Shown: positions 1-12,225 of the stretch, piece by piece
Position numbering within the stretch: position 1 is the stretch's first letter
How the letters are laid out: each line of letters starts with the position of its first letter
Source: an uncultured Chloroflexia bacterium
GTDB taxonomy: Bacteria; Chloroflexota; Chloroflexia; Thermomicrobiales; UBA6265
DNA: 64,000 bases
Assembly (NCBI GenBank): GCA_963724295.1
Contig: CAVRUC010000005.1
Span: 202,492 to 266,491, forward strand
Reading direction: 5' to 3'
The notes under the pieces: model-generated
Seen by the model: the letters and a program-made list of their open reading frames with translations, nothing else
Database searches by the model: none
What the model was told of the DNA's origin: nothing
Translations under genes and position numbers: made by a program

Positions 1-1241
<1,241 letters not shown>

Positions 1242-1430
1242 CGAAGTTGCATCGGCGGTGGGAGGAACCCTCCCGCTCTCCGCTCGGGCGGCCAGTGCGT
1301 CGGTCCCGTCCGACGCGCTGACGGCCGCCACACCGCGGAACGATCAGCGCATTGCCGCGAACAACTCAGGTGCAGTAGTCATATCTCGACCACCGGCACG
1401 CAACATGCAATATCTGCTGGGTGGTCCCCC

Positions 1431-1751
1431 GCGACGATGGGGAGGAGTAGGGCCGACAACCGCGCAAGCGACTCAGGGATGGTGGAAGCCTGGGACTCGC
1501 GGAATCGCCCCGAACGCGCCCCGGAGCGGCTGGCCGAAGAACGTCGCCTCTCGCGACAAGTAGGCTCAGGTGGGTGGTTCCCACGGAACGAACAACCGAG
1601 AGATGCGCGCCGCCGGGGATTCCCGGTCGCTCGCAAGAAGGGTGGTACCGCGGGAGCAGACGCCTCTCGCCCCTTCGGTCCGGATGCGGCGCACGTTGCG
1701 CCCGCCGGCGCCGGGCGTCCCGTCGACGTCAGGAACCGAAGGGGGTTCGTC
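1431..1751 (+). promoter_or_regulatory. T-box riboswitch leader (translational type, probable Arg specifier) controlling the OTC/LysW operon
   Basis: The core GGGUGGUACCGCG lies at 1640-1652 inside AAGAAGGGUGGUACCGCGGGAG. An antiterminator-like fold is present: helix 1637-1642/1671-1676, 7-nt bulge UGGUACC at 1643-1649, and helix 1650-1656/1664-1670. Stem I shows AG-bay AGCGA (1467-1471), distal loop GAUGGUGGAAG (1478-1488), and nested helices 1431-1436/1542-1547, 1451-1455/1531-1535, 1460-1464/1498-1502 and 1472-1477/1489-1494. CCCCUUCGGU (1670-1679) is perfectly complementary to ACCGAAGGGG (1735-1744), which covers the SD before ATG 1752. Confidence 0.8.
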
Positions 1752-2861
1752 ATGTTTGAAGCGTCCGCCGCGTCGGATCCGCGGCCAGTACCGCACCCGA
1801 CGCCCAGCTTGACCCGGGTAGAACCGCAATCCGACCCGTTCACCGAGGCGATCGCCCCGCGCGCGATTTCCCTCGGCGGCCCCGGCGCGGGCAATCTCTC
1901 CACCTTCACGATCAGCGCGCGCTTGCAAGGGCGGAGCGTCCTCACCGATACGGACCTGACCCGCGACGAAATCGTGGAGGTGATCGGGACCGCTGCCCGG
2001 TTGAAGAAGCTGCGCCAGGCAGGTCAGCCGCACGGATACCTGGCGGGCAAGTCGCTCGGCATGATCTTCCAGCACCCCAGCACCCGCACCCGGGTCGCGT
2101 TTGAAGCGGGTATGGCGCAGCTCGGGGGTCAGGCCATTTTCCTCGGCGTCCACGACTTGCAGATCAAGCGCGGCGAGAGTCTCGCCGACACGGCGCAGGT
2201 GTTGAGCCGCTACGTCGACGGCATCGTCGCTCGCGTCGCCGCGCACAGCGATATCGAGGAGATCGCCGCGGCCTCAGCGGTGCCCGTCCTCAACGGGCTC
2301 TCCGACCGGTGCCACCCGATGCAGGCGCTCAGCGACCTTTTGACGATGCAGGAGGTCTTCGGCGACCTCCCCGGGCGCAAGATCGCCTATCTCGGCGACG
2401 GCAATAACATGGTCCATTCGCTGCTGCTGACCTGCGCCGTGATGGGCATGAGCGTCACCGTGGCGTCGCCTGAAGGCTACCAGCCCGATCCTGAGGTCGT
2501 GAACCACGCGCGGTGGCTGGCCGCGGCCAGCGGCGCCGATCCCGAGATCGTCATCACTGATGATCCGATGGCAGCCGCCAGCGGCGCCGATGCCATCTAC
2601 ACCGACGTTCACGTCAGCATGGGTCAGACCGACGCCGCGACCCGAGCCGTAGCCCTGGCGCCGTACAAAGTGACCACCAGGATCATGACCGCGGCAAAGC
2701 CGGCGGCCGTCTTCATGCACTGCCTACCGATGCACCGGGACCAGGAGGTCGAAGCCGTCGTGGCCGACGGACCGCGCTCGATCATCTTCGATCAGGCCGA
2801 AAACCGGCTCCATCTGCAGAAGGCGGTGCTCCTGCACACCCTCTGTCCGACCGTGGCCTAG
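1752..2861 (+). CDS. argF: ornithine carbamoyltransferase-family protein, paralog 1 (about 65-aa Pro-rich N-terminal extension)
   Basis: Motifs present: FQHPSTRTR (carbamoyl-phosphate site), HPMQALSDLLT, DVHVSMG and HCLPMHRD. The start at ATG 1752 was chosen because SD GAAGGGGG (1739-1745) sits 6 nt upstream and is the target of the T-box sequestrator. The track ORF start at 1437 would run through the riboswitch. Confidence 0.85.
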   Translation: MFEASAASDPRPVPHPTPSLTRVEPQSDPFTEAIAPRAISLGGPGAGNLSTFTISARLQGRSVLTDTDLTRDEIVEVIGTAARLKKLRQAGQPHGYLAGKSLGMIFQHPSTRTRVAFEAGMAQLGGQAIFLGVHDLQIKRGESLADTAQVLSRYVDGIVARVAAHSDIEEIAAASAVPVLNGLSDRCHPMQALSDLLTMQEVFGDLPGRKIAYLGDGNNMVHSLLLTCAVMGMSVTVASPEGYQPDPEVVNHARWLAAASGADPEIVITDDPMAAASGADAIYTDVHVSMGQTDAATRAVALAPYKVTTRIMTAAKPAAVFMHCLPMHRDQEVEAVVADGPRSIIFDQAENRLHLQKAVLLHTLCPTVA

Positions 2862-2875
2862 GGAGCGATAAAGCG

Positions 2876-3892
2876 GTGCACATGGTCATCGACGGTTACA
2901 ACGCAACAGGGGCAGGTGGTCAGGTCTTTTCCTGGATCGACGACCCAGCCGCGCGCGTCGCGGCTCCCGGTTTGCACGGCCGCAGCGTTCTCTCCGACCT
3001 CGACTTATCGCGCGCCGACGTCGATGCCCTGGTCGAAACCGCGCTCTGGCTCAAGATCCAGCGGGAGCGAGCGCAACCGCACCCATACCTCGCCGGGAAA
3101 ACACTGGGCATGCTCTTTCAACATCCGAGCACCCGCACCCGCAATGCCTTCCAGGCCGGCATGGAGCAGCTTGGCGGACACGCGACCTTTCTCGGCGCGG
3201 ACGAGTTGCAGCTCACCCGCGGCGAGACCCTGCCCGACACCGCCAGGATTCTCAGCCGTTACGTCGACGGTATCGCCGCCCGTTTCTCCGCGCACGACGA
3301 TCTCATCGTCTTCATGGGCGGCGCCTCGATTCCGGTCTACAACGCGCTCACCGAACGCTTTCACCCCATCGAGGCGCTGAGCGATTTGTTGACCCTGCAC
3401 GATCAGTTCGGCGGCCTCAAGGGACTGAAGCTTGCCTACGTTGGGGATGGCAACAACGTTTGTCACTCGCTGATGCTCAGCGCCGCCGCCGCGGGTATGC
3501 ACGTCGCCGTTGCCTCTCCCGACGCCTTCGCACCCGATCACACGCTCGTCGAACGCGGGCGGGAGCTTGCGGCACAGGCCGGCGGGTCGGTCCTCGTCAC
3601 CGAAGACCCGGTACAGGCCGTCACCGGAGCCGACGCGGTCTACACCGACGTCCACGAGAGCATGGGTCAGCCGGACGATCCACAGAAGCGGCTGGTCCTG
3701 ACGCCATACAAGGTGACCGTGGCGCTGATGGCGGAGGCGCGCCCAACCGCTGTCTTCATGCACTGCCTGCCGATGCAACGGGACATGGAGGTGGAAGCGG
3801 CCGTAGCGGACGGTCCGCAATCGATCGTATTCGAGCAAGCCGCGAACCGGCTGCACATGCACAAGGCCGTGCTCCTGCTGACGATGGGGTAA
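2876..3892 (+). CDS. ornithine carbamoyltransferase-family protein, paralog 2 (HPxQ changed to HPIE)
   Basis: Motifs present: FQHPSTRTR, DVHESMG and HCLPMQRD. The HPxQ motif reads HPIEALSDLLT. The gene is tandem to paralog 1 with a 14-nt gap. The start is GTG 2876 or ATG 2881, after GGGAGCG. Confidence 0.85.
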   Translation: MHMVIDGYNATGAGGQVFSWIDDPAARVAAPGLHGRSVLSDLDLSRADVDALVETALWLKIQRERAQPHPYLAGKTLGMLFQHPSTRTRNAFQAGMEQLGGHATFLGADELQLTRGETLPDTARILSRYVDGIAARFSAHDDLIVFMGGASIPVYNALTERFHPIEALSDLLTLHDQFGGLKGLKLAYVGDGNNVCHSLMLSAAAAGMHVAVASPDAFAPDHTLVERGRELAAQAGGSVLVTEDPVQAVTGADAVYTDVHESMGQPDDPQKRLVLTPYKVTVALMAEARPTAVFMHCLPMQRDMEVEAAVADGPQSIVFEQAANRLHMHKAVLLLTMG

Positions 3893-3982
3893 CGCTGACG
3901 ACATGAGCTATGCGGCAGGGCGAGGGCTCTGTCGCCCGGGAATCAAGCTGCACGAGCAGGTGCAAGGAAGGTAGGAACTGCA

Positions 3983-4147
3983 ATGGACGTGACCTGTCCG
4001 GAATGTGGCGCCGAGTTGGCATTGAGCGGGGTCGAGCAGGGAGAGATCGTCACCTGTCCTGACTGTGGGGTCGATCTCGAAGTACTCACCTCCGAGCCGA
4101 TCACGGTCGGTCTCGCCCCCGAGGAAGGCGAGGACTGGGGCGAATAG
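3983..4147 (+). CDS. lysW: amino-group carrier protein LysW (54 aa, absent from the ORF track)
   Basis: Hand translation gives [54 protein letters not shown]. It has two CxxC pairs (zinc ribbon) and the diagnostic acidic C-terminus EDWGE. An AAGGAAGG SD lies upstream, and the gene sits inside a LysXZYJK cluster. Confidence 0.9.
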
Positions 4148-4175
4148 ACGCAAGCCAGAGGTATCTGGAGCGAGG

Positions 4176-5108
4176 ATGACGGCAGAGAAGGGGTCCGCGA
4201 TGGCAACGGTAGGCGTGCTCTGTGCGCGCGGTCGAGTCGAAGAAAACGCACTCATGGCGGCGCTGGCGCAAGCTGGCATCGTCTCTGCGCTCTTCCCGCC
4301 CGCGGACGAACCACTGCCAGTCGGACCGACGTCGCATTCGCCGACCGGGCGTCCCTTCCCCGTGCCGCAGATCGTCGTCGATCGCCATCCAACCCGCCAG
4401 ATCGCCCGCGCGGTAATTGCGACGTGCGGTGCGCTCGGTGTACCGGTGCTCTGCGCCGGCATCGCCGCCACTGGCGACCGTCTGGACGTGGCATCTGCCT
4501 TGGCCGGCCACGATCTGCCACGTCCGCTGACGGCCCTGTGCACCTCGGAAGATGCCGGAATCGAGGCCGTTGCCGCGATGGGACTGCCGGCCACGCTGCT
4601 GCCGCTGGAGCTGAAGTCGGCGCCGATCGCCCTCCTCGACCGGGACGCCGCCGAGGCGGTCCTCGAACACCGCGCCGTGCTTGGCGGCGTCGAAGGTTCC
4701 CTGGGGCTCATCCAGGCCGGGTCTCCGAGCACCGAACATCTCGTGAACGTGATCGTCGTCGACGGAGCGGCCACCGCCGTCGAGACCAGGACCGGCACCG
4801 CTGTTCCGGATCAGGCCATGCGCCTCGCCGAGTACGCCGCCGGCGCGCTGAACGCGGACCTCGTGGCCATCGTTATCGCCTTGCGCTCCGGCGGCCCGGT
4901 GATCTGGGACGCCCGCCCGGTCCCGGATTTTCGCGACGCGATGCCGATCGGGAATCTCACCGTTGCGCAATCGATCGCCCAGGCAGTCGAGCGCAGACTG
5001 CTGACCACGGCCTCGGGTCTGCCGGGAGAGCGAGACCGGACGTGGACCGGTATCTCCTCCAGCACCCAAGGACAAGGACTGCGACGTGATCTCGTCATCA
5101 GTGCCTGA
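4176..5108 (+). CDS. LysX/RimK-like ATP-grasp paralog with degenerate active site (probable pseudoenzyme)
   Basis: It aligns along its length with the two downstream LysX proteins (for example VGVLCARGRVEENALMAALAQAG against [23 protein letters not shown]). However, KPxxGSWGRLL is replaced by LELKSAPIALL, QE(Y/F)V by QAGS, and the D...EVN metal site by AIVIAL...WDARP. The start is ATG 4176 or 4200. The 3' end overlaps lysK by 23 nt. Confidence 0.7.
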   Translation: MTAEKGSAMATVGVLCARGRVEENALMAALAQAGIVSALFPPADEPLPVGPTSHSPTGRPFPVPQIVVDRHPTRQIARAVIATCGALGVPVLCAGIAATGDRLDVASALAGHDLPRPLTALCTSEDAGIEAVAAMGLPATLLPLELKSAPIALLDRDAAEAVLEHRAVLGGVEGSLGLIQAGSPSTEHLVNVIVVDGAATAVETRTGTAVPDQAMRLAEYAAGALNADLVAIVIALRSGGPVIWDARPVPDFRDAMPIGNLTVAQSIAQAVERRLLTTASGLPGERDRTWTGISSSTQGQGLRRDLVISA

Positions 5109-6189
5109 CATCGCACCGGCAGCCGCGTCCGGGACCGTGGCGCCGGGAGATTACGACGTCGACCTGCTGCGGCGTATGGTCGAGATCCCAAGTCTGTCCG
5201 ACGAGGAGCATGCGGCAGTGGCGGAGCTCTGCCGTCAGATGGAGGCGCGCGGCTTTCGCGCCGAGATCGACGCCGCTGGCAACGCGATAGGAGTGATTGG
5301 CTCCGGAGAGCGCCATATCGTGCTCCTCGGGCATATCGACACGGTCCCCGGTCAGATCCCGGTCCGCATCGAGAACGGCGAGTTGTGGGGCCGCGGCGCG
5401 GTCGACGCCAAGGGACCGCTCTGCACGTTCGTCGCCGCGGCCGCCGCGGCCGCGCCGGACCTCAGCGCCACGGTCACGGTCGTCGGTGCGGTCGGGGAGG
5501 AGCGTCTCGGTTCTCCCGGCGCTAATGCCGTCGCCGCCTGGGATGCCCCGGACTACTGCGTCATCGGCGAGCCAAGCGGCTGGGACGCCGTCTGCCTCGG
5601 CTACCGCGGCACACTCGGGTTCCACTACCGGCTGCGCCAACCATCACGCCACAGCGCCGGACCCGGCGAATCAGCCGGCGAGCAAGCGATCGCGTTCTGG
5701 AACGCCTTGGTGGCCGAGCTCGATGCCATGAACACCGCAAGTGGTGCCACCACCGGGTTTACGACTATCGCTCCCGCCCTGCGCGAGATGCGCTCCGGCG
5801 GGAACGGGTTGGAAGACGAAGCCGTCATGTCGATTGGTCTTCGCCTCCCACCCGGAGTCGATACGGACCGGCTCCACGGACGCCTGCGGGAGCTCGCCGC
5901 TCCGGCGGTCATTGAGGTCGACGGAGTGCAGCCGGGCTTTCGCTCGCCGAAGCAGACGCCGCTGGTGCCGCCGTTCCTGCGCGCGATTCGTGCCGCGGGC
6001 GGTTCGCCCCGCTTCACCCTGAAGCTGGGAACCTCTGACATGACTGTCGTCGGCCCGGTCTGGAACTGCCCCATGGTCACCTACGGCCCGGGAGATGCGT
6101 CACTCGACCACACGCCTCACGAGCGGATCGATCTCGAGCACTACGGTCTTGCCATCCGCGTCCTGCGTGATGTCCTGGTGTCGCTATGA
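5086..6189 (+). CDS. lysK: [LysW]-lysine/ornithine hydrolase, M20 peptidase family (ArgE/LysK)
   Basis: Motifs LLGHIDTVPG and GRGAVDAKGP are M20/ArgE-DapE signatures. GTG start. The stop overlaps the next start (ATGA). Confidence 0.85.
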   Translation: MISSSVPDIAPAAASGTVAPGDYDVDLLRRMVEIPSLSDEEHAAVAELCRQMEARGFRAEIDAAGNAIGVIGSGERHIVLLGHIDTVPGQIPVRIENGELWGRGAVDAKGPLCTFVAAAAAAAPDLSATVTVVGAVGEERLGSPGANAVAAWDAPDYCVIGEPSGWDAVCLGYRGTLGFHYRLRQPSRHSAGPGESAGEQAIAFWNALVAELDAMNTASGATTGFTTIAPALREMRSGGNGLEDEAVMSIGLRLPPGVDTDRLHGRLRELAAPAVIEVDGVQPGFRSPKQTPLVPPFLRAIRAAGGSPRFTLKLGTSDMTVVGPVWNCPMVTYGPGDASLDHTPHERIDLEHYGLAIRVLRDVLVSL

Positions 6190-7100
6190 CCGCACCCGGT
6201 CTCAACGGTCACTCCCGCCTCGCTGCATCCCGTCCCGACCGGCTCGGGGTGCTCGTCTCCTACCTCCGCCCCGAGGAGAAGTCGATCCTGGCCGCGGCCC
6301 GCGATCGCGGCATCGAAGTCGCGCCGATTTTCGATCGCGATCTCGTGCTCGATCTGTCGTCGCCACACGCTCCGGGCAGTGGGCTCGATTTCGACGTCGT
6401 CCTCGACCGCTGCGTCGCCCACTCGCGCTCCGGTTACACCTTGCGCGCGCTGCGACGCTGGGGCGTCCCGACCCTGAATACCGCCGAGGCGGTCCGGCTC
6501 TGCGACGACAAGGCCGAGAACAGCCTGGTTCTGGAGGCGGCTGGCATCCCTACTCCACGCACGCTGATCGCCTTCGACGTCGCATCCGCGCTGCGGGCCT
6601 GCGAAACCCTCGGCTATCCCGCCGTGCTCAAACCGGTCACCGGCTCCTGGGGCCGCCTCCTGGCCCGCGTCAATGGACCCGATCAGGCGCGGACGGTGCT
6701 GGAGCAGAAGAAAGAGCTTGGCTCCTTCCATCACGCGATCTTTTATGTCCAGGAATACGTCGAAAAACCGGACCGGGACATCCGCGCCTACGTCGTCGGT
6801 GACCGCGTGCTGGCTGCGTCATACCGCACCGCGAAGCACTGGGTCACGAACGCCGCCCGTGGCGCCGAGTCCGTGCCCTGTCCGATCACCCCCGATATCG
6901 AGGAGCTTGCCCTCCGCGCCTGCGCCGCTGTCGGCGCCCGCCTGGCCGGTGTCGATCTGATCGAGACTGGTGAAGGTCTGGAGGTCATCGAGGTCAATAC
7001 CGGCGGCGAGTTCAAAGGACTCATGTCCACCACCGACGTCGACATCGCCGGCGCAATCGTCGACGAGGCCATGCGCACGGCGCGTCTGGGAGTCGCATGA
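6186..7100 (+). CDS. LysX/ArgX-family ATP-grasp ligase (carrier-protein-amino-acid ligase), divergent copy
   Basis: Intact motifs: [49 protein letters not shown] and VDLIE...[13 protein letters not shown] overlaps occur at both ends. Confidence 0.85.
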
Positions 7101-8014
7101 ACGCTCCCCTGATCGTCGGCGTCCTTCTCTCTCGTGTGCGCGTCGAGGAAAAGCTGCTTCTCGCCGAGCTGGAGCGGCGCGGTGTCGAGATCGTTCGCTT
7201 CGACGACCGCGAGTTCTGGCTCGACCTCGGCGCCCCCGACCTTTCGATGCTGCGCTGCGATGTCGTGCTGGAGCGCTGCATCAACCACCTGCGCGCCCTC
7301 TATACCTTACGCGTCCTGAACGATTGGGACGTACCGACCGTCAACAGCTACGAGGTGGCCAACATCTGCGGCGACAAGCTTCTCACCTCGACCGCATTGG
7401 AACGGGCCGGCATTCCCACGCCGCGGACGCTGATCGCCTTCACGCCCGAATCGGCATTGGCGGCGTGCGAGGAGATCGGTTACCCGGTGGTCATGAAACC
7501 CGCAGTTGGCTCCTGGGGCCGGCTGCTGGCCCGGGTCAACGACCGGGACGCGGCGGAAGCCCTGCTGGAGCATAAGGTCACGCTCGGCTCATTTCACCAC
7601 GGCGCCTTCTACATTCAGGAGTTCGTGCGCAAACCGGGCCGCGACATCCGCACTTTCGTCGTCGGCGACGAAACGATCTGTGCGATCTACCGCGATTCTC
7701 CGCACTGGATCACGAACACCGCCCGCGGCGCCTCGGCCAGCAACTGCCCGGTGAGCGACGAGCTGCATGCACTCTCCCAGGCAGCCGCGGCTGCTGTCGG
7801 CGGCGGCGTGGTGGCCATCGATCTCTTCGAGAGCGACCGCGGTCTGCTGGTCAATGAGGTCAACTACACCATGGAGTTCCGCAACAGCATCGACACTACC
7901 GGGGTCGATATCCCGGCCCGCATCGTTGACTACGTTATCGCGGTCGGTCAGGCGGAACGAGATCGCCGCGACGTGTTAATGGCTCCCGCCGTCGCCGCGG
8001 CTGCCGGCGATTGA
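7097..8014 (+). CDS. lysX: LysX-type ATP-grasp ligase (closest, by recollection, to Thermus LysX)
   Basis: Motifs present: [44 protein letters not shown] and [22 protein letters not shown]. Confidence 0.85.
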
Positions 8015-8772
8015 TGAGTGTCATGTCGGAGCAGATTGAAACCCGGCTGGATTACGACAGACGCGCGACCGAGTTTGCCCTCCATCGCAAGATCCATCCT
8101 GAAGTCCTTCGCGAGCTCCTCGGCAGCGGTTTGTTCGGTCCGGAAACGCGTGTCCTGGACGTCGGTTGCGGTACAGGAAACTACGCCGCCGCACTGACCG
8201 CGGAAACGAGTTGCCGAATCTCCGGCGTCGATCCCTCAGAGAGGATGCTCGACTGGGCCCGCGACGCCGCGTCATGGGAATCCCTGACAAAGTCTGACGC
8301 GGAGCATCTGCCGTTCGGCGCCGGAGCGTTCGACGTCGTCATGTCGACCGACGTCATTCACCACATTCGGGATCGTGACGGCTACTTCCGTGAGGCGGCC
8401 AGGGTGCTGCGAGCCGGGGGTCATCTCGTGACCGTCACTGATTCGCACGACACCATTCCGCGGCGGCGTCCCCTCTCCAGCCACTTTCCGGAAACGGTCG
8501 GAGTCGAGCTGCAGCGCTATCCGCCGGTACCACGGTTGCTGGAGGAGATGGGTCGCGCCGGGTTCGTCGAGCCTCGCATTGTCGAGGTCTCGCGCGACTA
8601 CGAGCTCGACGATATCCAGGCCTACCGGGACCGGGCATTCTCCTCGCTCCTCCTGATCGAGGAGGAGGCGTTTCGCCGCGGGATAAGCCGTCTGGAAGCG
8701 GACCTGGCACGGGGACCCATCCCGTGCGTCTCTCTCTACACGATGATTTGGGGACAATTACCCTGCTCGTAA
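8014..8772 (+). CDS. class I SAM-dependent methyltransferase embedded in the LysW cluster
   Basis: It carries motif I VLDVGCGTGNYA and an acidic post-I region. The start ATG 8014 overlaps the lysX stop (TGATG); TTG 8011 is an alternative. The stop TAA 8770-8772 overlaps ATG 8772. Confidence 0.8.
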   Translation: MSVMSEQIETRLDYDRRATEFALHRKIHPEVLRELLGSGLFGPETRVLDVGCGTGNYAAALTAETSCRISGVDPSERMLDWARDAASWESLTKSDAEHLPFGAGAFDVVMSTDVIHHIRDRDGYFREAARVLRAGGHLVTVTDSHDTIPRRRPLSSHFPETVGVELQRYPPVPRLLEEMGRAGFVEPRIVEVSRDYELDDIQAYRDRAFSSLLLIEEEAFRRGISRLEADLARGPIPCVSLYTMIWGQLPCS

Positions 8773-8807
8773 TGCCTGTGGCGGGATATGGAGGCAGTAG
8801 TCAACCG

Positions 8808-9851
8808 ATGAACGTTTCGATTATTGGCGGCAGCGGATACGCGGGCGGGGAGCTGGTTCGCCTCCTGCTCGATCATCCCGAGGTCACGATCCAGCAGGTG
8901 ACATCCGAGCGCAACGCCGGCAAATTCGTCCGTTCGGTTCATCCCAACTTGCGCAAGCGATCCGACCTCAAGTTCTCGGCACTGGCCGACTTGCAACCGG
9001 CTGACGTCATCTTCAGCGCATTGCCGCACGGCGTCGCCATGGGTCAGATGGCCGAGCTGCGTCAGAAGGCGCCGATCGTCATTGACCTCAGCGCCGACTT
9101 CCGGCTGCGCGATGCCGCCGACTACCCGAAGTGGTACGGCCATGAACACCAGGACCCGGAGCTGCTGGAATCGTTCGTCTACGGCATACCGGAGCTCCAT
9201 CGCGAGGAGCTGCGCGACGCCGATCTGATCTCCAGCGCCGGCTGCATGGCCGCGACCAGCATCCTCGGTCTCTATCCCCTCTTCCAGGCGAAGGTCGTTG
9301 ATCTCTCCCGCCCGGTCGTGGTCGAGGCCAAGACCGGATCGTCCGGGTCGGGCGGCGCACCCGGACTCGGGTCGCATCATCCCGAACGGAGCGGCGCGAT
9401 GCGCTCCTTCAAGCCGACCGGTCACCGCCACTCGGCCGAGATCATCCAGGAGCTGACTGTCGACGGCCAGGGACCAGAGGTCGCCTTCTCCGCCACCGCG
9501 ATCGAGGCGGTGCGTGGCATTCTGGCCACCTCCCACGTCTTCCTCGAGGAGCCCTTGCCCGAGAAGGAGATCTGGTCCATCTACCGGGCGGCGTACAAGG
9601 ACGAGCCATTCATGCGGCTGGTCAAGGAGGCCTCCGGTGTCCATCGCTACCCGGAACCGAAGCTCCTTTCCGGCTCCAACTGGTGTGACGTCGGTTTCGA
9701 GCGTGATCCCAATTCCAACCGCATCGTGGTCATGGCCGCGCTCGACAACCTGATGAAAGGCGCTGCAGGCCAGGCGGTGCAGGCCCTCAACATCCGCTGC
9801 GGATTCCCGGAGACGACCGCCCTCGAGTTCGCGGGGCTCCATCCGATTTAG
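8808..9851 (+). CDS. lysY: N-acetyl-gamma-glutamyl-phosphate reductase homolog, LysY/ArgC type
   Basis: Motifs present: MNVSIIGGSGYAGGELVRLL (NAD-binding N-terminus) and SSAGCMATS (catalytic Cys). GGAGG lies at 8790-8794. The alternative start ATG 8772 is coupled to the methyltransferase stop. Confidence 0.85.
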   Translation: MNVSIIGGSGYAGGELVRLLLDHPEVTIQQVTSERNAGKFVRSVHPNLRKRSDLKFSALADLQPADVIFSALPHGVAMGQMAELRQKAPIVIDLSADFRLRDAADYPKWYGHEHQDPELLESFVYGIPELHREELRDADLISSAGCMAATSILGLYPLFQAKVVDLSRPVVVEAKTGSSGSGGAPGLGSHHPERSGAMRSFKPTGHRHSAEIIQELTVDGQGPEVAFSATAIEAVRGILATSHVFLEEPLPEKEIWSIYRAAYKDEPFMRLVKEASGVHRYPEPKLLSGSNWCDVGFERDPNSNRIVVMAALDNLMKGAAGQAVQALNIRCGFPETTALEFAGLHPI

Positions 9852-9868
9852 CGCGCGTCTCGTGCGAA

Positions 9869-10038
9869 GTGTCATCCCCAGGAACGACGGATCTCGTCCG
9901 GACCTGACGCATGGACACGAAGAATCGTGATTCCTGGCAAACTGCTATGAAAAACTCGCCGAAAAACCCGAACGGACGCGGAACGGGTTTTCATGCCGTG
10001 GTGATGCCCCACCGGGGCATGACTACTCGGAATGACAC
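9869..10038. repeat. composite palindromic intergenic repeat (GTGTCATCCCC...GAATGACAC) carrying a 97-nt core duplicated at 51690
   Basis: The left end GTGTCATCCCCAGGAACGACGGATCTCGTCC and right end CGGAATGACAC belong to the dispersed GTGTCATCCCGAGG family. The core 9942-10038 matches 51690-51786 at 96/97 positions by hand alignment. Confidence 0.8.
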
Positions 10039-10081
10039 AATGCTCGCAACGCGCTATGGCAACACAGAGGACATGTAATTC

Positions 10082-10921
10082 ATGCTGGTAATCAAGATCG
10101 GCGGCGGCGCGGCCATCGGCGAGGGCGGCTACAGCAACTTTGCCGAGGACCTGGCTACCATCGCCGAGCCGGTCGTGGTCGTCCACGGCGGCAATGCCGA
10201 GTTCAGCGCGCTGAGCCGTCAGCTCGGCATGCCACCGCGCATGATCACGTCGTCCAGCGGGCGCGTCACTCGCTACACCGACGCCGCGACGATGGACGCC
10301 ATGCTGATGGCCTACTGCGGCAAGGTCAACAAGCGGCTCGTCGCTACGTTGCGCAGCGCCGGCGTCAACGCCGTTGGCCTGAGCGCCATCGACGGGGGCA
10401 TCGCCGTCGGCAGACGGAAACCGGTCCTGCGCGGCGCCGAGGATGGCAAGAGCAAAGTGCTTCGGGACGACCACGCGGGAACCCTGGAGTTCGTGGATCC
10501 CTCGCTGGTGGGGCTCTTGCTGCAGAACGGCTACACCCCCGTGCTCACCCCGCCCGCGCTGGGCGAAGCAGGCGTGCCGATCAACGTCGACGGCGACAAG
10601 CTCGCCCTCGAGCTGGCCACCGCGCTGCAGGCGGAGGGCCTGCTCTTCTTCTCCGACACCCCGGGTCTGCTACGTGACCGGCACGACGAAACCTCGCTAA
10701 TCGCCGAAATCGATGCCTCGTCGCCCGAATCGGCACTGGCAGCGGCGGCGGGCCGCATGGTGGTCAAGGTCGAAGCCGCGCTCGGCGCCGTGGAACGCGG
10801 CGTTGGTCGCGTCGTCTTCGCCGATGGTCGCATTGCCAACCCAATCCGGGCGGCGCTAAACGGGCAGGGAACGACCGTCCGACACGCGATGCCCGCGGCA
10901 GCTGAAAAAAGTGATCGGTAA
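10082..10921 (+). CDS. lysZ: amino-acid kinase, LysZ/ArgB type
   Basis: Motifs present: MLVIKIGGGA and VVVHGGN, with an overall acetylglutamate-kinase-like fold. The gene lies within the cluster. Confidence 0.85.
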   Translation: MLVIKIGGGAAIGEGGYSNFAEDLATIAEPVVVVHGGNAEFSALSRQLGMPPRMITSSSGRVTRYTDAATMDAMLMAYCGKVNKRLVATLRSAGVNAVGLSAIDGGIAVGRRKPVLRGAEDGKSKVLRDDHAGTLEFVDPSLVGLLLQNGYTPVLTPPALGEAGVPINVDGDKLALELATALQAEGLLFFSDTPGLLRDRHDETSLIAEIDASSPESALAAAAGRMVVKVEAALGAVERGVGRVVFADGRIANPIRAALNGQGTTVRHAMPAAAEKSDR

Positions 10922-11043
10922 CCCGCGGGGAAGCGTCTTTCAAATCGTGCCCGTAGGAGCGCCGCCTGCAAGGCGTCGCCCGCATTGCCTAGACGGAGAA
11001 CGCACGATTCGGACGCACCCCCAACACAGGAGCAACGCAACAC

Positions 11044-12225
11044 ATGACGACCGTCGGAACGCTCGACCTGGCTCAAATCCAACACCTCGAAAATGATCAC
11101 CAGCCACCGCTCTACGCCAAACGGGAGATCGCCCTCGTCCGCGGCGAGGGCGCCTATCTCTTCGACACCGAGGGGCGCCGGTATCTCGACGCCATGAGCA
11201 ACTACGGCGTGGCGATCCTCGGCCACGCCGACCGGGAATACGCCGCGGCTCTCAGCGAGCAATTGCAGACCCTGGCCACCGGCCACCAGAGCTTTTACAG
11301 CGACGTCCGGGCCGAGCTGCTCGCCGAAATCGCGCAGATCGCACCGGCCGGTTTGACGCGCTACTTCCTCTCCAACTCGGGCGCGGAGGCCGTGGAGGCT
11401 GCGATCAAGTTCGCCCGCGTCGCCACCGGACGACCGAATCTCGTCGCGGCCAAGCGCGGCTATCACGGACGGACCCTGGGCGCTCTGGCCGCGACCGCCG
11501 ACCAGAAGTACCGCGCGCCGTTCGAGCCGCTGGCGCCGCACACAACGCATGTCACGTTCAACGACGTCGACGCGCTCGCGGCCGCCGTCGACGACCAGAC
11601 CGCGGCCATCCTGCTCGAGCCGATCCAGGGCGAAGGTGGCATCTGGCCCGCATCCTCGGAATATCTCCAGTCCGCCCGGGAGATCGCCACCGCCCAAGGA
11701 GCGCTCCTCATCGCCGACGAGATCCAGACCGGCTTCCGCACCGGCGCTCCCTGGGCGATGAGCGTGTCCGAGGTTGTTCCCGACGTGCTGGTCACGGCGA
11801 AAGCGCTAGCCAACGGATTCCCGATCGGTCTGACGATGTTTACCGAAGCGATCTCGGAGGCGATCCCGAGCGGCGCCCATGGCACAACGTTTGGCGCCAG
11901 CCCGCTGGCTTGTCGCGCCGCAATCGTTACCCTGCGCGCGCTGCGTGAGCGGGACCTCTATGCGCGGTCGGCGGCGCTCGGCGCGGAGATCATGGAACGT
12001 CTTACCGGCCTCGGTAGTCCGAAAGTGCGCCAGGTGCGCGGCCGCGGCATGATGATCGGGGTCGAGCTCAAGGAGCGTGTTACCCCGACTCTCCGGGCTC
12101 TGCAACAGCGCGGCGTGCTGGTCCTTCCCGCGGGACCCACCACCTTCCGCCTCCTACCCCCGCTCATCTGGGAGCAGGAGCAGGTCGACGAGTTGATCGA
12201 GGCGGTTGAATCAACGCTGAACTGA
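11044..12225 (+). CDS. lysJ: class III PLP aminotransferase, LysJ/ArgD type
   Basis: It has typical acetylornithine aminotransferase features: SNSGAEAVEAAIKFAR, LIADEIQTGFRTG, and the PLP-lysine region TAKALANGFP. Confidence 0.85.
   Translation: MTTVGTLDLAQIQHLENDHQPPLYAKREIALVRGEGAYLFDTEGRRYLDAMSNYGVAILGHADREYAAALSEQLQTLATGHQSFYSDVRAELLAEIAQIAPAGLTRYFLSNSGAEAVEAAIKFARVATGRPNLVAAKRGYHGRTLGALAATADQKYRAPFEPLAPHTTHVTFNDVDALAAAVDDQTAAILLEPIQGEGGIWPASSEYLQSAREIATAQGALLIADEIQTGFRTGAPWAMSVSEVVPDVLVTAKALANGFPIGLTMFTEAISEAIPSGAHGTTFGASPLACRAAIVTLRALRERDLYARSAALGAEIMERLTGLGSPKVRQVRGRGMMIGVELKERVTPTLRALQQRGVLVLPAGPTTFRLLPPLIWEQEQVDELIEAVESTLN

Follow-up and report, generated by a model that had tools for sequence, protein, structure and literature searches.

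The stretch of DNA considered here, a 64,000-nt window of contig CAVRUC010000005.1 from an uncultured Chloroflexia bacterium of the order Thermomicrobiales, raises the question of what controls an arginine operon headed by an argF-like ornithine carbamoyltransferase (OTC) gene, whose start codon at ATG 1752 is preceded by a leader of about 500 nt. We conclude, at a probability of roughly 0.8, that positions 1425-1751 form a full-length tRNA-Arg T-box riboswitch controlling translation initiation of OTC, the first gene of the operon. For comparison, a genome-collection scan with the OTC protein yielded 79 related loci of 56-92% protein identity, all of them from Thermomicrobiales or Chloroflexota metagenome-assembled genomes.

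The Rfam covariance model of the T-box, RF00230, matches the leader over its whole length (model positions 1-219) at 1425-1677, with a score of 50.6 bits and an E value of 3.5e-10 for the region or 3.9e-8 for the 64-kb window. A T-box core, GGGUGGUACC(G/A)CG, is present upstream of OTC in 78/78 loci with upstream DNA, and its UGGU is invariant among them. In the window the 14-nt T-box sequence AGGGUGGUACCGCG occupies 1639-1652, and the core GGGUGGUACCGCG lies at 1640-1652, exactly where an earlier note on this DNA had located it. The same note had also correctly placed the two helices around the bulge UGGUACC, the AG bay of Stem I, and the distal loop GAUGGUGGAAG (coordinates of all features in Table 1).

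Structural conservation was scored on a MAFFT alignment of 48 diverse leaders (alignment A1), using 500 column shuffles and slid pairing partners as controls, and covered the kink-turn (K-turn) stem, the four Stem I helices, Stem II, the IIA hairpin, the IIB pseudoknot, the base of Stem III, and the discriminator helices A1 and A2. Within this set, 93.0% of cells are paired, compared with 84.6% in the column shuffles and 37-51% for slid partners; both sides change at 37 of 55 pairs, a number matched by 0/500 shuffles, and the covariation score is 0.311 versus 0.156 in shuffles. Every T-box helix covaries, including the IIA/B pseudoknot, where 35 sequences have CG and 12 have UA at one pair. 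The Stem I helices (1-5) are 78-100% paired with nearly all pairs covarying, and the K-turn, the specifier loop with its 3' purine, the AG bay, and the distal loop are all found in their expected places, the motifs AGCGA and GGUG.AAGC being invariant. The helices of Stem II, the IIA/B pseudoknot, and Stem III (6-9) are 91-98% paired, and the discriminator helices reach 99.7% (A1) and 93.8% (A2), with compensatory changes in A2. Membership of the T-box family, as put forward in the earlier note, is established for both sequence and structure, with support from the covariance-model match, the presence in every locus with upstream DNA, and the covariation in each helix; the element is predicted to bind tRNA.

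The identity of the cognate tRNA was approached through a specifier survey anchored on the 3' strand of the K-turn in 77 loci. The triplet that follows GAA is CGC in 71 loci and CGG in 6, both arginine codons, and the next base is a purine in 77/77 loci (G in 67, A in 10). This identifies CGC at 1515-1517, within GAA-CGC-G at 1512-1518, as the arginine specifier among the candidates that had been listed previously. Two other triplets named at that time, CGU at 1542-1544 and GAA (Glu) at 1539-1541, were ruled out as specifiers: both fall within CCGAAGAA(A/C)G, a conserved motif of Stem II, and most loci have AGC or AGA where the window has CGU. The arginine specifier is accompanied downstream by genes of arginine metabolism, as in an Arg T-box regulon, and the UGGU bulge predicts A73 as the discriminator base of the tRNA-Arg.

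Downstream of the T-box, a start codon with the strongest Shine-Dalgarno (SD) sequence and a long open reading frame (ORF) follows the core by 97-133 nt in all 79 sequences, and in 79/79 the 3' arm of the T-box helix forms a duplex with the SD segment (xCGAAGGGRG). In the window this arm, CCCCUUCGGU, is the exact complement of ACCGAAGGGG, 8 nt before ATG 1752, as had been pointed out before. Arm-SD duplexes computed with RNAduplex average -18.0 kcal/mol, compared with -9.9 for shuffled SD regions, and end 5-10 nt before the start codon in nearly all of the sequences; matched arm/SD variants occur as CCCUUUGG/CCAAAGGG, CCCUUCAGU/ACUGAAGGG, and CCCUUCCG/CGGAAGGG. Across the 48 aligned leaders, the 10-bp core of the sequestrator is 85% paired versus at most 55% when slid, and at the pair 1676-1738, 35 sequences have C-G and 9 have U-A. 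This compensation is specific to the sequestrator because the same change in helix A1 merely produces a G.U wobble.

At -61.3 kcal/mol, the sequestrator with its paired SD is the minimum free energy (MFE) fold of 1630-1760; when helices A1 and A2 are enforced on the same segment, the fold reaches -56.1 kcal/mol and the SD lies in a hairpin loop. The two states are thus separated by about 5 kcal/mol. Among the 79 sequences, no conserved U-tract or terminator was found after the T-box. The arrangement is that of an SD-sequestering T-box, in which the 3' strand of the discriminator pairs with the SD and there is no terminator. A translational design resembling that of the actinobacterial ileS T-boxes had been suggested from the window, together with the lack of a terminator U-tract, and both points are now borne out across the loci by the universal SD pairing, the one sequestrator-specific compensatory pair, and the absence of a conserved U-tract.

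These elements suggest a simple switch. Stem I would show CGC (CGG in some relatives) to the anticodon of tRNA-Arg, while the UGGU bulge would probe the free 3' end of the tRNA (A73-CCA). Uncharged tRNA would hold the antisequestrator at 1637-1676 together and leave the SD, GAAGGGGG, exposed in a small hairpin loop. Without uncharged tRNA, the 3' arm would quit the discriminator helix and pair with its downstream complement, burying the SD. We infer tRNA binding, the direction of regulation, and likewise the absence of a transcriptional component.

Several observations weigh against this reading. The RF00230 search recommended in the earlier note did return a full-length match, but the score of 50.6 bits remains below the Rfam gathering cut-off of 93; an Rfam scan of the whole window at gathering thresholds reported nothing, and the T-box emerges only with permissive filters. 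Non-cognate arm-SD pairs already average -16.7 kcal/mol, so that cognate pairs are better by only about 1.3. Covariation of the sequestrator is modest, its both-side pair changes being no higher than those of shuffles (249/500), and each of its arms is separately constrained, one by helix A1 and the other by SD function. A search of the window and all 79 loci found no tRNA-Arg gene. There may in addition be a transcriptional or Rho-dependent component, as terminators in this phylum are uncharacterised. Finally, a reading-frame constraint on the leader, described below, shows that something beyond the standard T-box model acts on it. Over-long ARAGORN "tRNA" genes of 81-95 nt (L073:718-798, L068:4013-4103, L014:4738-4832) lie on the T-box discriminator or inside the OTC ORF and were taken as false positives.

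The leader also contains, upstream of the T-box, an arginine-rich short ORF (sORF) that overlaps two hairpins, hp1 and hp2. Seventy-four loci carry this sORF, whose modal length is 28 codons and whose core, SRSP.(G/R)RPARRSR(P/T)TR, is conserved; its SD, ATG, frame, and stop are all conserved as well, which suggests that it is translated. The stop occupies one conserved position (TGA in 47 loci, TAG in 15, TAA in 12) and is never UGG, though UGG would equally satisfy the RNA pairing. Arginine makes up 25% of the sORF on average, compared with about 15-17% for the leader downstream of it in each of its three frames, and the last sense codon encodes arginine in 65/74 loci. Taken together, hp1 and hp2 are 86.7% paired versus 38-50% when slid, and 10 pairs change on both sides, which 0/500 shuffles match; hp2 by itself is 93-94% paired, with compensatory changes. 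An alternative helix between GCGC-stop and UCAGCGC (or UUAGCGC) is complete at 7/7 positions in 43/74 loci and at 6/7 in 18 more, and the stop/partner combinations UGA/UCA, UAG/CUA, and UAA/UUA all occur. The sORF and its hairpins probably form a second arginine sensor, one that relies on the ribosome and stands in tandem with the sensor that relies on tRNA.

It could alternatively be proposed that this sORF is the main regulator, as a ribosome-mediated attenuator, and that the T-box merely fine-tunes it or is a decaying relic. The conserved and arginine-rich sORF, the covariation of hp2, and the inclusion of the stop codon in the alternative helix all speak for such a scheme. The hairpins, however, lack the terminator of classical attenuators: no canonical terminator was found after the alternative helix, and a U-run follows it in only 13/74 loci. 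Part of the arginine richness is a by-product of a GC-rich helix, because several arginine codons turn into histidine codons where hp2 covaries. The T-box is not a relic either, because its structure is under strong purifying selection in 78 loci. We consider an attenuator-led operon possible but doubtful.

Loci without argG upstream (L003-L012, L015, L024-L029, and others) keep a short 3' remnant of argG (...LEVxR-TGA). The adjacency of argG seems to have been lost several times, and the remnant appears to be kept because it carries the SD of the sORF and the overlapping ATGA. Stop avoidance in the OTC frame inside the body of the sORF is uninformative, the region being too short; a metagenome scan with the sORF motif TCCCGCTCTCCN5GGC was equally uninformative, giving 120 chance matches, none with a T-box downstream.

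A second alternative places the action of the T-box on transcription, with the hairpin at 1668-1748 serving as an unconventional intrinsic terminator that lacks a U-tract, or else signalling Rho entry or a pause, and with the SD pairing as an incidental consequence. This hairpin is very stable (-48.9 kcal/mol), and a moderately U-rich stretch, UUCGUCAUGUUUG, comes after it in the window. There are no established terminator rules for Chloroflexota, and long untranslated leaders are typical targets of Rho. The U-rich tail is, however, not conserved, most loci having CACCAUG or similar at this point; the partner of the 3' arm is in every sequence the SD, at 6-10 nt from the start codon that follows; and the only terminator-like match is the small SD hairpin itself. 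A transcriptional T-box is accordingly improbable.

Were the element a T-box that reads another amino acid, the specifier would have to lie in a shifted register, as ACG (Thr) at 1514-1516 or GCG (Ala) at 1516-1518. The loop GAACGCG holds all three triplets, and the CGG variants keep ACG intact. Nevertheless, both the covariance-model alignment and a layout of the glyQS type (GAA, codon, purine, helix) put the codon at 1515-1517; GCG becomes GGG (Gly) in 6 loci, ACG is followed by C rather than the conserved purine in 71 loci, and the genes under control make arginine, which leaves a shifted register very improbable.

The constraint that the T-box model does not foresee concerns the reading frame of the leader. 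Distances between conserved landmarks were compared across loci and distinct lengths counted, covering at least 60 length changes, and 59/60 of these are in phase with OTC (binomial P ~3e-27). Counted by segment, the distinct lengths in phase are all 18 between the sORF stop and the K-turn, all 7 of the Stem I segments, 16 of 17 of the Stem II apex, all 14 of the Stem III region, and all 10 from the 3' arm to the start codon. The sole exception, L058, differs by 1 nt from its sister L069 and comes from a 4-kb contig with about 9x coverage. In alignment A1, 271/277 internal gap runs are multiples of three, and all 16 distinct leader lengths leave a remainder of 1 on division by three. Between the K-turn and the start codon, the OTC frame (frame 0) contains zero stops in 74 loci, compared with 183 and 122 in the other two frames. 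It remains open for a median of 495 nt upstream, where it is closed in 73/76 loci by the TGA that overlaps the sORF start, and it is both open and locked to multiples of three in 73/74 loci with the sORF. The spacer between the second OTC gene and lysW served as a control in the same loci: its 16 distinct lengths fall into residue classes of 9/4/3, and the frames of these two genes relative to the first OTC are scattered.

One explanation, that the leader is ordinary coding sequence, either extending OTC far at its N-terminus or fusing ArgG to OTC by readthrough, with secondary T-box-like features, would account for the open frame of about 500 nt, the indels in multiples of three, and the position of argG in the OTC frame in 29/30 loci where it is adjacent, but is scarcely credible given a flat GC content by codon position (0.69/0.66/0.67, compared with 0.69/0.44/0.86 in OTC), equally flat numbers of variable columns (53, 50, and 54), tandem in-frame stops at the boundary in several loci, a lock that persists in about 45 loci without argG upstream, no conserved frame-0 start codon upstream of the T-box, and a strong conserved SD and ATG at 1752, from which point GC at third codon positions rises to 0.81. 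The only conserved start-like codon is a GUG in the distal loop of Stem I, and no compositional bias was found in the conceptual frame-0 product. Both versions of coding were rejected on these grounds, ordinary coding sequence by the flat GC and substitution patterns, and ArgG-OTC readthrough by the boundary stops and the loci without argG. An antisense gene was rejected as well: all three minus-strand frames contain 137-182 stops, and any one of them is stop-free in just 7-10/75 loci.

Only translation is aware of triplets, and for this reason ribosomes appear to pass through the leader in the OTC frame often enough to matter, traversing the T-box as they do so. Known riboswitch mechanisms give no explanation for the lock. 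Roles for ribosome transit can be imagined in resetting the switch, in shielding the 500-nt leader from Rho, or in basal expression.

Two side observations concern this frame. The specifier CGC of the T-box itself lies in the OTC frame. In the Stem II apex of L057, L061, and L078, tandem repeats of 7-8 nt (GGGGGACA, GCCGTCA, GGAAGGC, CTGGGCA) are inserted and extend to as much as 288 nt in L078, in every case adding up to a multiple of three; the intergenic spacers of L045 are filled with similar repeats.

A conceivable way for ribosomes to enter the OTC frame starts from the sORF, which is the only conserved element upstream that is presumably translated, in a frame that is that of OTC minus one. 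Its end usually reads A-CGC-GC-UGA-C, with CGCGY-stop in 53/74 loci and C after the stop, a poor stop context, in most; this motif is also part of hp2, which confounds its conservation. Speculatively, the tRNA-Arg in the P site could re-pair without mismatch 2 nt upstream on the overlapping CGC, or shift by +1, in either case entering the only open frame. Ribosomes finishing the sORF would then read about 430 nt through hairpins, T-box, and sequestrator into OTC, and arginine would be read twice on one RNA. We regard this scheme as unlikely. Frame 0 consists of about 16% arginine codons, and transit under starvation would therefore be difficult. If the scheme were true, arginine supply would be sensed both by the ribosome on arginine codons and by the T-box through tRNA charging, the passage of ribosomes would link the two sensors or reset them, and the leader would be the first case of a riboswitch kept inside a recoded open frame.

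Table 1. Positions in the 64,000-nt window of the leader elements and of the operon that follows them
Feature	Position	Strand	Description
sORF SD (GGAGGU)	1226-1231	+	6 nt before ATG 1238; GGAGGU-N6-8-ATGA kept even in loci without argG
Arg-rich leader sORF	1238-1321	+	27 codons; ATG overlaps argG stop (ATGA); frame is OTC minus 1
Frame-locked leader	1242-1751	+	OTC frame open from TGA overlapping sORF start to ATG 1752; indels multiples of 3
Hairpin hp1	1257-1277	+	GGGAGG/CCUCCC core 1260-1265/1269-1274, inside sORF; MFE fold; 75% of cells paired (alignment A2)
Bulged hairpin hp2	1287-1329	+	Outer helix 1287-1293/1323-1329, inner 1295-1303/1310-1318; sORF stop UGA-C (1319-1322) in internal loop
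UCAGCGC	1343-1349	+	Alternative partner of GCGC-UGA 1315-1321
T-box Stem I	1429-1529	+	K-turn 1429-1437/1524-1529, specifier loop, AG bay AGCGA 1467-1471, distal loop 1478-1488; Rfam alignment
Specifier codon CGC (Arg)	1515-1517	+	GAA before, purine G1518 after; placed by covariance-model alignment
Stem II and Stem IIA/B pseudoknot	1530-1597	+	Stem II 1530-1569, S-turn GAAGAA/AAGUA; IIA/B 1570-1584, 1576-1579 with 1594-1597
Stem III	1605-1634	+	Apex variable; base pairs 95% paired, changes on both sides
T-box sequence and antisequestrator	1637-1676	+	A1 1637-1642/1671-1676, bulge UGGUACC 1643-1649, A2 1650-1656/1664-1670
Sequestrator	1670-1744	+	1670-1679 pairs with 1735-1744, variable hairpins enclosed; SD GAAGGGGG 1738-1745; MFE form
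argF-like OTC gene 1	1752-2861	+	369 aa, N-terminal extension ~57 aa; Pfam and NCBIfam matches; gene directly controlled
Rest of operon	2876-12225	+	Family scans and ORFs

The gene upstream of the leader is argG, which ends at 1241. Downstream of the first OTC gene lie a second OTC paralogue, lysW (3983-4147, encoding a protein that ends in ...EDWGE), a divergent ATP-grasp gene, lysK, two lysX/argX genes, a methyltransferase gene, lysY/argC, lysZ/argB, and lysJ/argD. With this gene content (argF, lysW, lysX, lysY, lysZ, lysJ, lysK, and argG), the operon therefore encodes a LysW carrier-protein route that makes ornithine and arginine and possibly serves lysine as well. The tandem OTC paralogues (1752-3892) both score above the TIGR00658 cut-off and carry N-terminal extensions of about 57 and 35 aa that standard OTCs do not have, and the pair is kept in related loci. 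Directly after lysW lies a third, highly divergent ATP-grasp gene (4176-5108) with no Pfam match and weak similarity to LysX (E 4e-11), and a class I S-adenosylmethionine methyltransferase gene (8011-8772) is set between lysX and argC/lysY; both are unusual in LysW clusters.

If our reading holds, Arg-specific T-box control extends to the Chloroflexota, tRNA sensing is tied to the LysW carrier-protein route to arginine, and the SD-sequestering platform is not a speciality of the actinobacterial ileS genes and is compatible with a complete long Stem I. The Rfam gathering threshold misses this whole order-wide T-box family in high-GC genomes, and high-GC T-boxes are probably under-annotated. On its own, the T-box is a moderately interesting variant; with the tandem sORF and the frame lock added, the locus gains considerably in interest. 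A covarying RNA with the features of a tRNA binder takes only indels whose length is divisible by three and keeps one frame free of stops, without codon bias. Either ribosomes routinely cross the folded riboswitch, which would bear on how translational T-boxes are reset or bypassed, or another constraint exists. The lock thereby touches on a question from a review of the field, the fate of translational T-boxes between rounds of tRNA binding.

One locus, L060, stands apart in its T-boxes. Insertion variants such as its first T-box (within L060:3300-9056) are missed even at E<=0.001. Between its two lysX genes, at L060:8816-8850, it has a second T-box-like core (GGGGUGGUACCACG and a helix), seen in no other locus, for which RF00230 matches the antiterminator part alone (13.8 bits, E 0.83). 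By eye, an AAG-A (Lys) specifier is possible; the frame of the downstream gene is not open through the core. With this weak, antiterminator-only match and no counterpart elsewhere, the second core was set aside as a comparison family.

Among known systems, the element is closest in form to the glyQS/tyrS-type T-boxes of RF00230, with which it shares the K-turn, the GAA-codon-purine loop, the AG bay, the distal loop, the Stem II S-turn, the IIA/B pseudoknot, and Stem III, as well as the 14-nt T-box sequence, the UGGN bulge, and the two-helix discriminator. It differs in hiding an SD with no terminator, in its host (Chloroflexota, Thermomicrobiales), and in its score below the gathering cut-off, which is probably due to a GC content of 69%. 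Arg-specific T-boxes of Peptostreptococcaceae were reportedly treated by Vitreschak et al. in 2008. Sun et al. 2013 (PMC3766115) describe T-boxes specific for Arg before argS and, in the Peptostreptococcaceae clostridia C. difficile, C. bartlettii, and C. hiranonis, before argG, argF, argCJBD(F), argH, and artPQM, with none among the Chloroflexi included in their survey. The clostridial elements are likewise tRNA-Arg T-boxes before arginine biosynthesis genes including argF, but they belong to Firmicutes, are treated as transcription-control leaders, and serve arg genes of the acetyl cycle, whereas the element described here is translational, lies in another phylum, and precedes a LysW carrier-protein operon. 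The earlier note had called tRNA control of this pathway unusual; given the clostridial cases this holds only in part. What is new is the phylum, the translational platform, and the LysW-type pathway, and above all the upstream Arg-rich sORF and the frame lock.

The expression platform has its nearest parallel in the actinobacterial ileS T-boxes, in which, according to PMC7583486, the 3' strand of the discriminator is an anti-SD, uncharged tRNA frees the SD, and the two states are close in energy. Those T-boxes are Ile-specific and control an aminoacyl-tRNA synthetase; in most of them Stem I is truncated or ultrashort and lacks the elbow-binding distal motif (Sherwood, Grundy and Henkin 2015; PMC7583486), and a long Stem I is kept by only a few translational T-boxes in the same account. 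In our window, by comparison, Stem I is long and complete, and the target is a biosynthetic operon. TBDB models translational T-boxes from actinobacterial ileS only, and the one paper found to name T-box and Thermomicrobiota together is about tandem riboswitch statistics.

The leaders of trp, his, leu, thr, and ilv operons are leader-peptide attenuators, and the leader peptide of the Thermus thermophilus lysine cluster is another attenuator of this type. As in the Corynebacterium ilvB upstream ORF (PMC10272879) and the Leu-rich peptide of S. aureus (PMC5794164), the sORF described here is a short ORF rich in the regulatory codon that overlaps alternative hairpins before a biosynthetic operon. 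It differs in having no canonical terminator, in a stop codon located in the internal loop of a hairpin, and in its position upstream of a T-box for the same amino acid. To our knowledge, no bacterial Arg-codon leader peptide has been known before. Programmed frameshifting at a poor stop context is familiar from prfB, at CUU-UGA-C, and frameshifting at hungry codons is known too. The features shared with these cases (review PMC5009743) are a stop followed by C, a re-pairable codon before it, and a shift that would land in the only open frame. The candidate shift at the end of the sORF would instead be a slip of -2 or +1 on an arginine codon, with no internal SD stimulator and with about 430 nt of shifted frame through a riboswitch. 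The B12 switches of M. tuberculosis (PMC11260477) and the metA SAM-II switch of S. meliloti (PMC9373788) have, respectively, ordinary upstream ORFs and two in-frame starts (AUG1/AUG2), their abstracts naming neither an ORF through the sensor nor indels in multiples of three; in both, as apparently in the Thermomicrobiales leader, a riboswitch leader is partly translated in a way that affects the main ORF.

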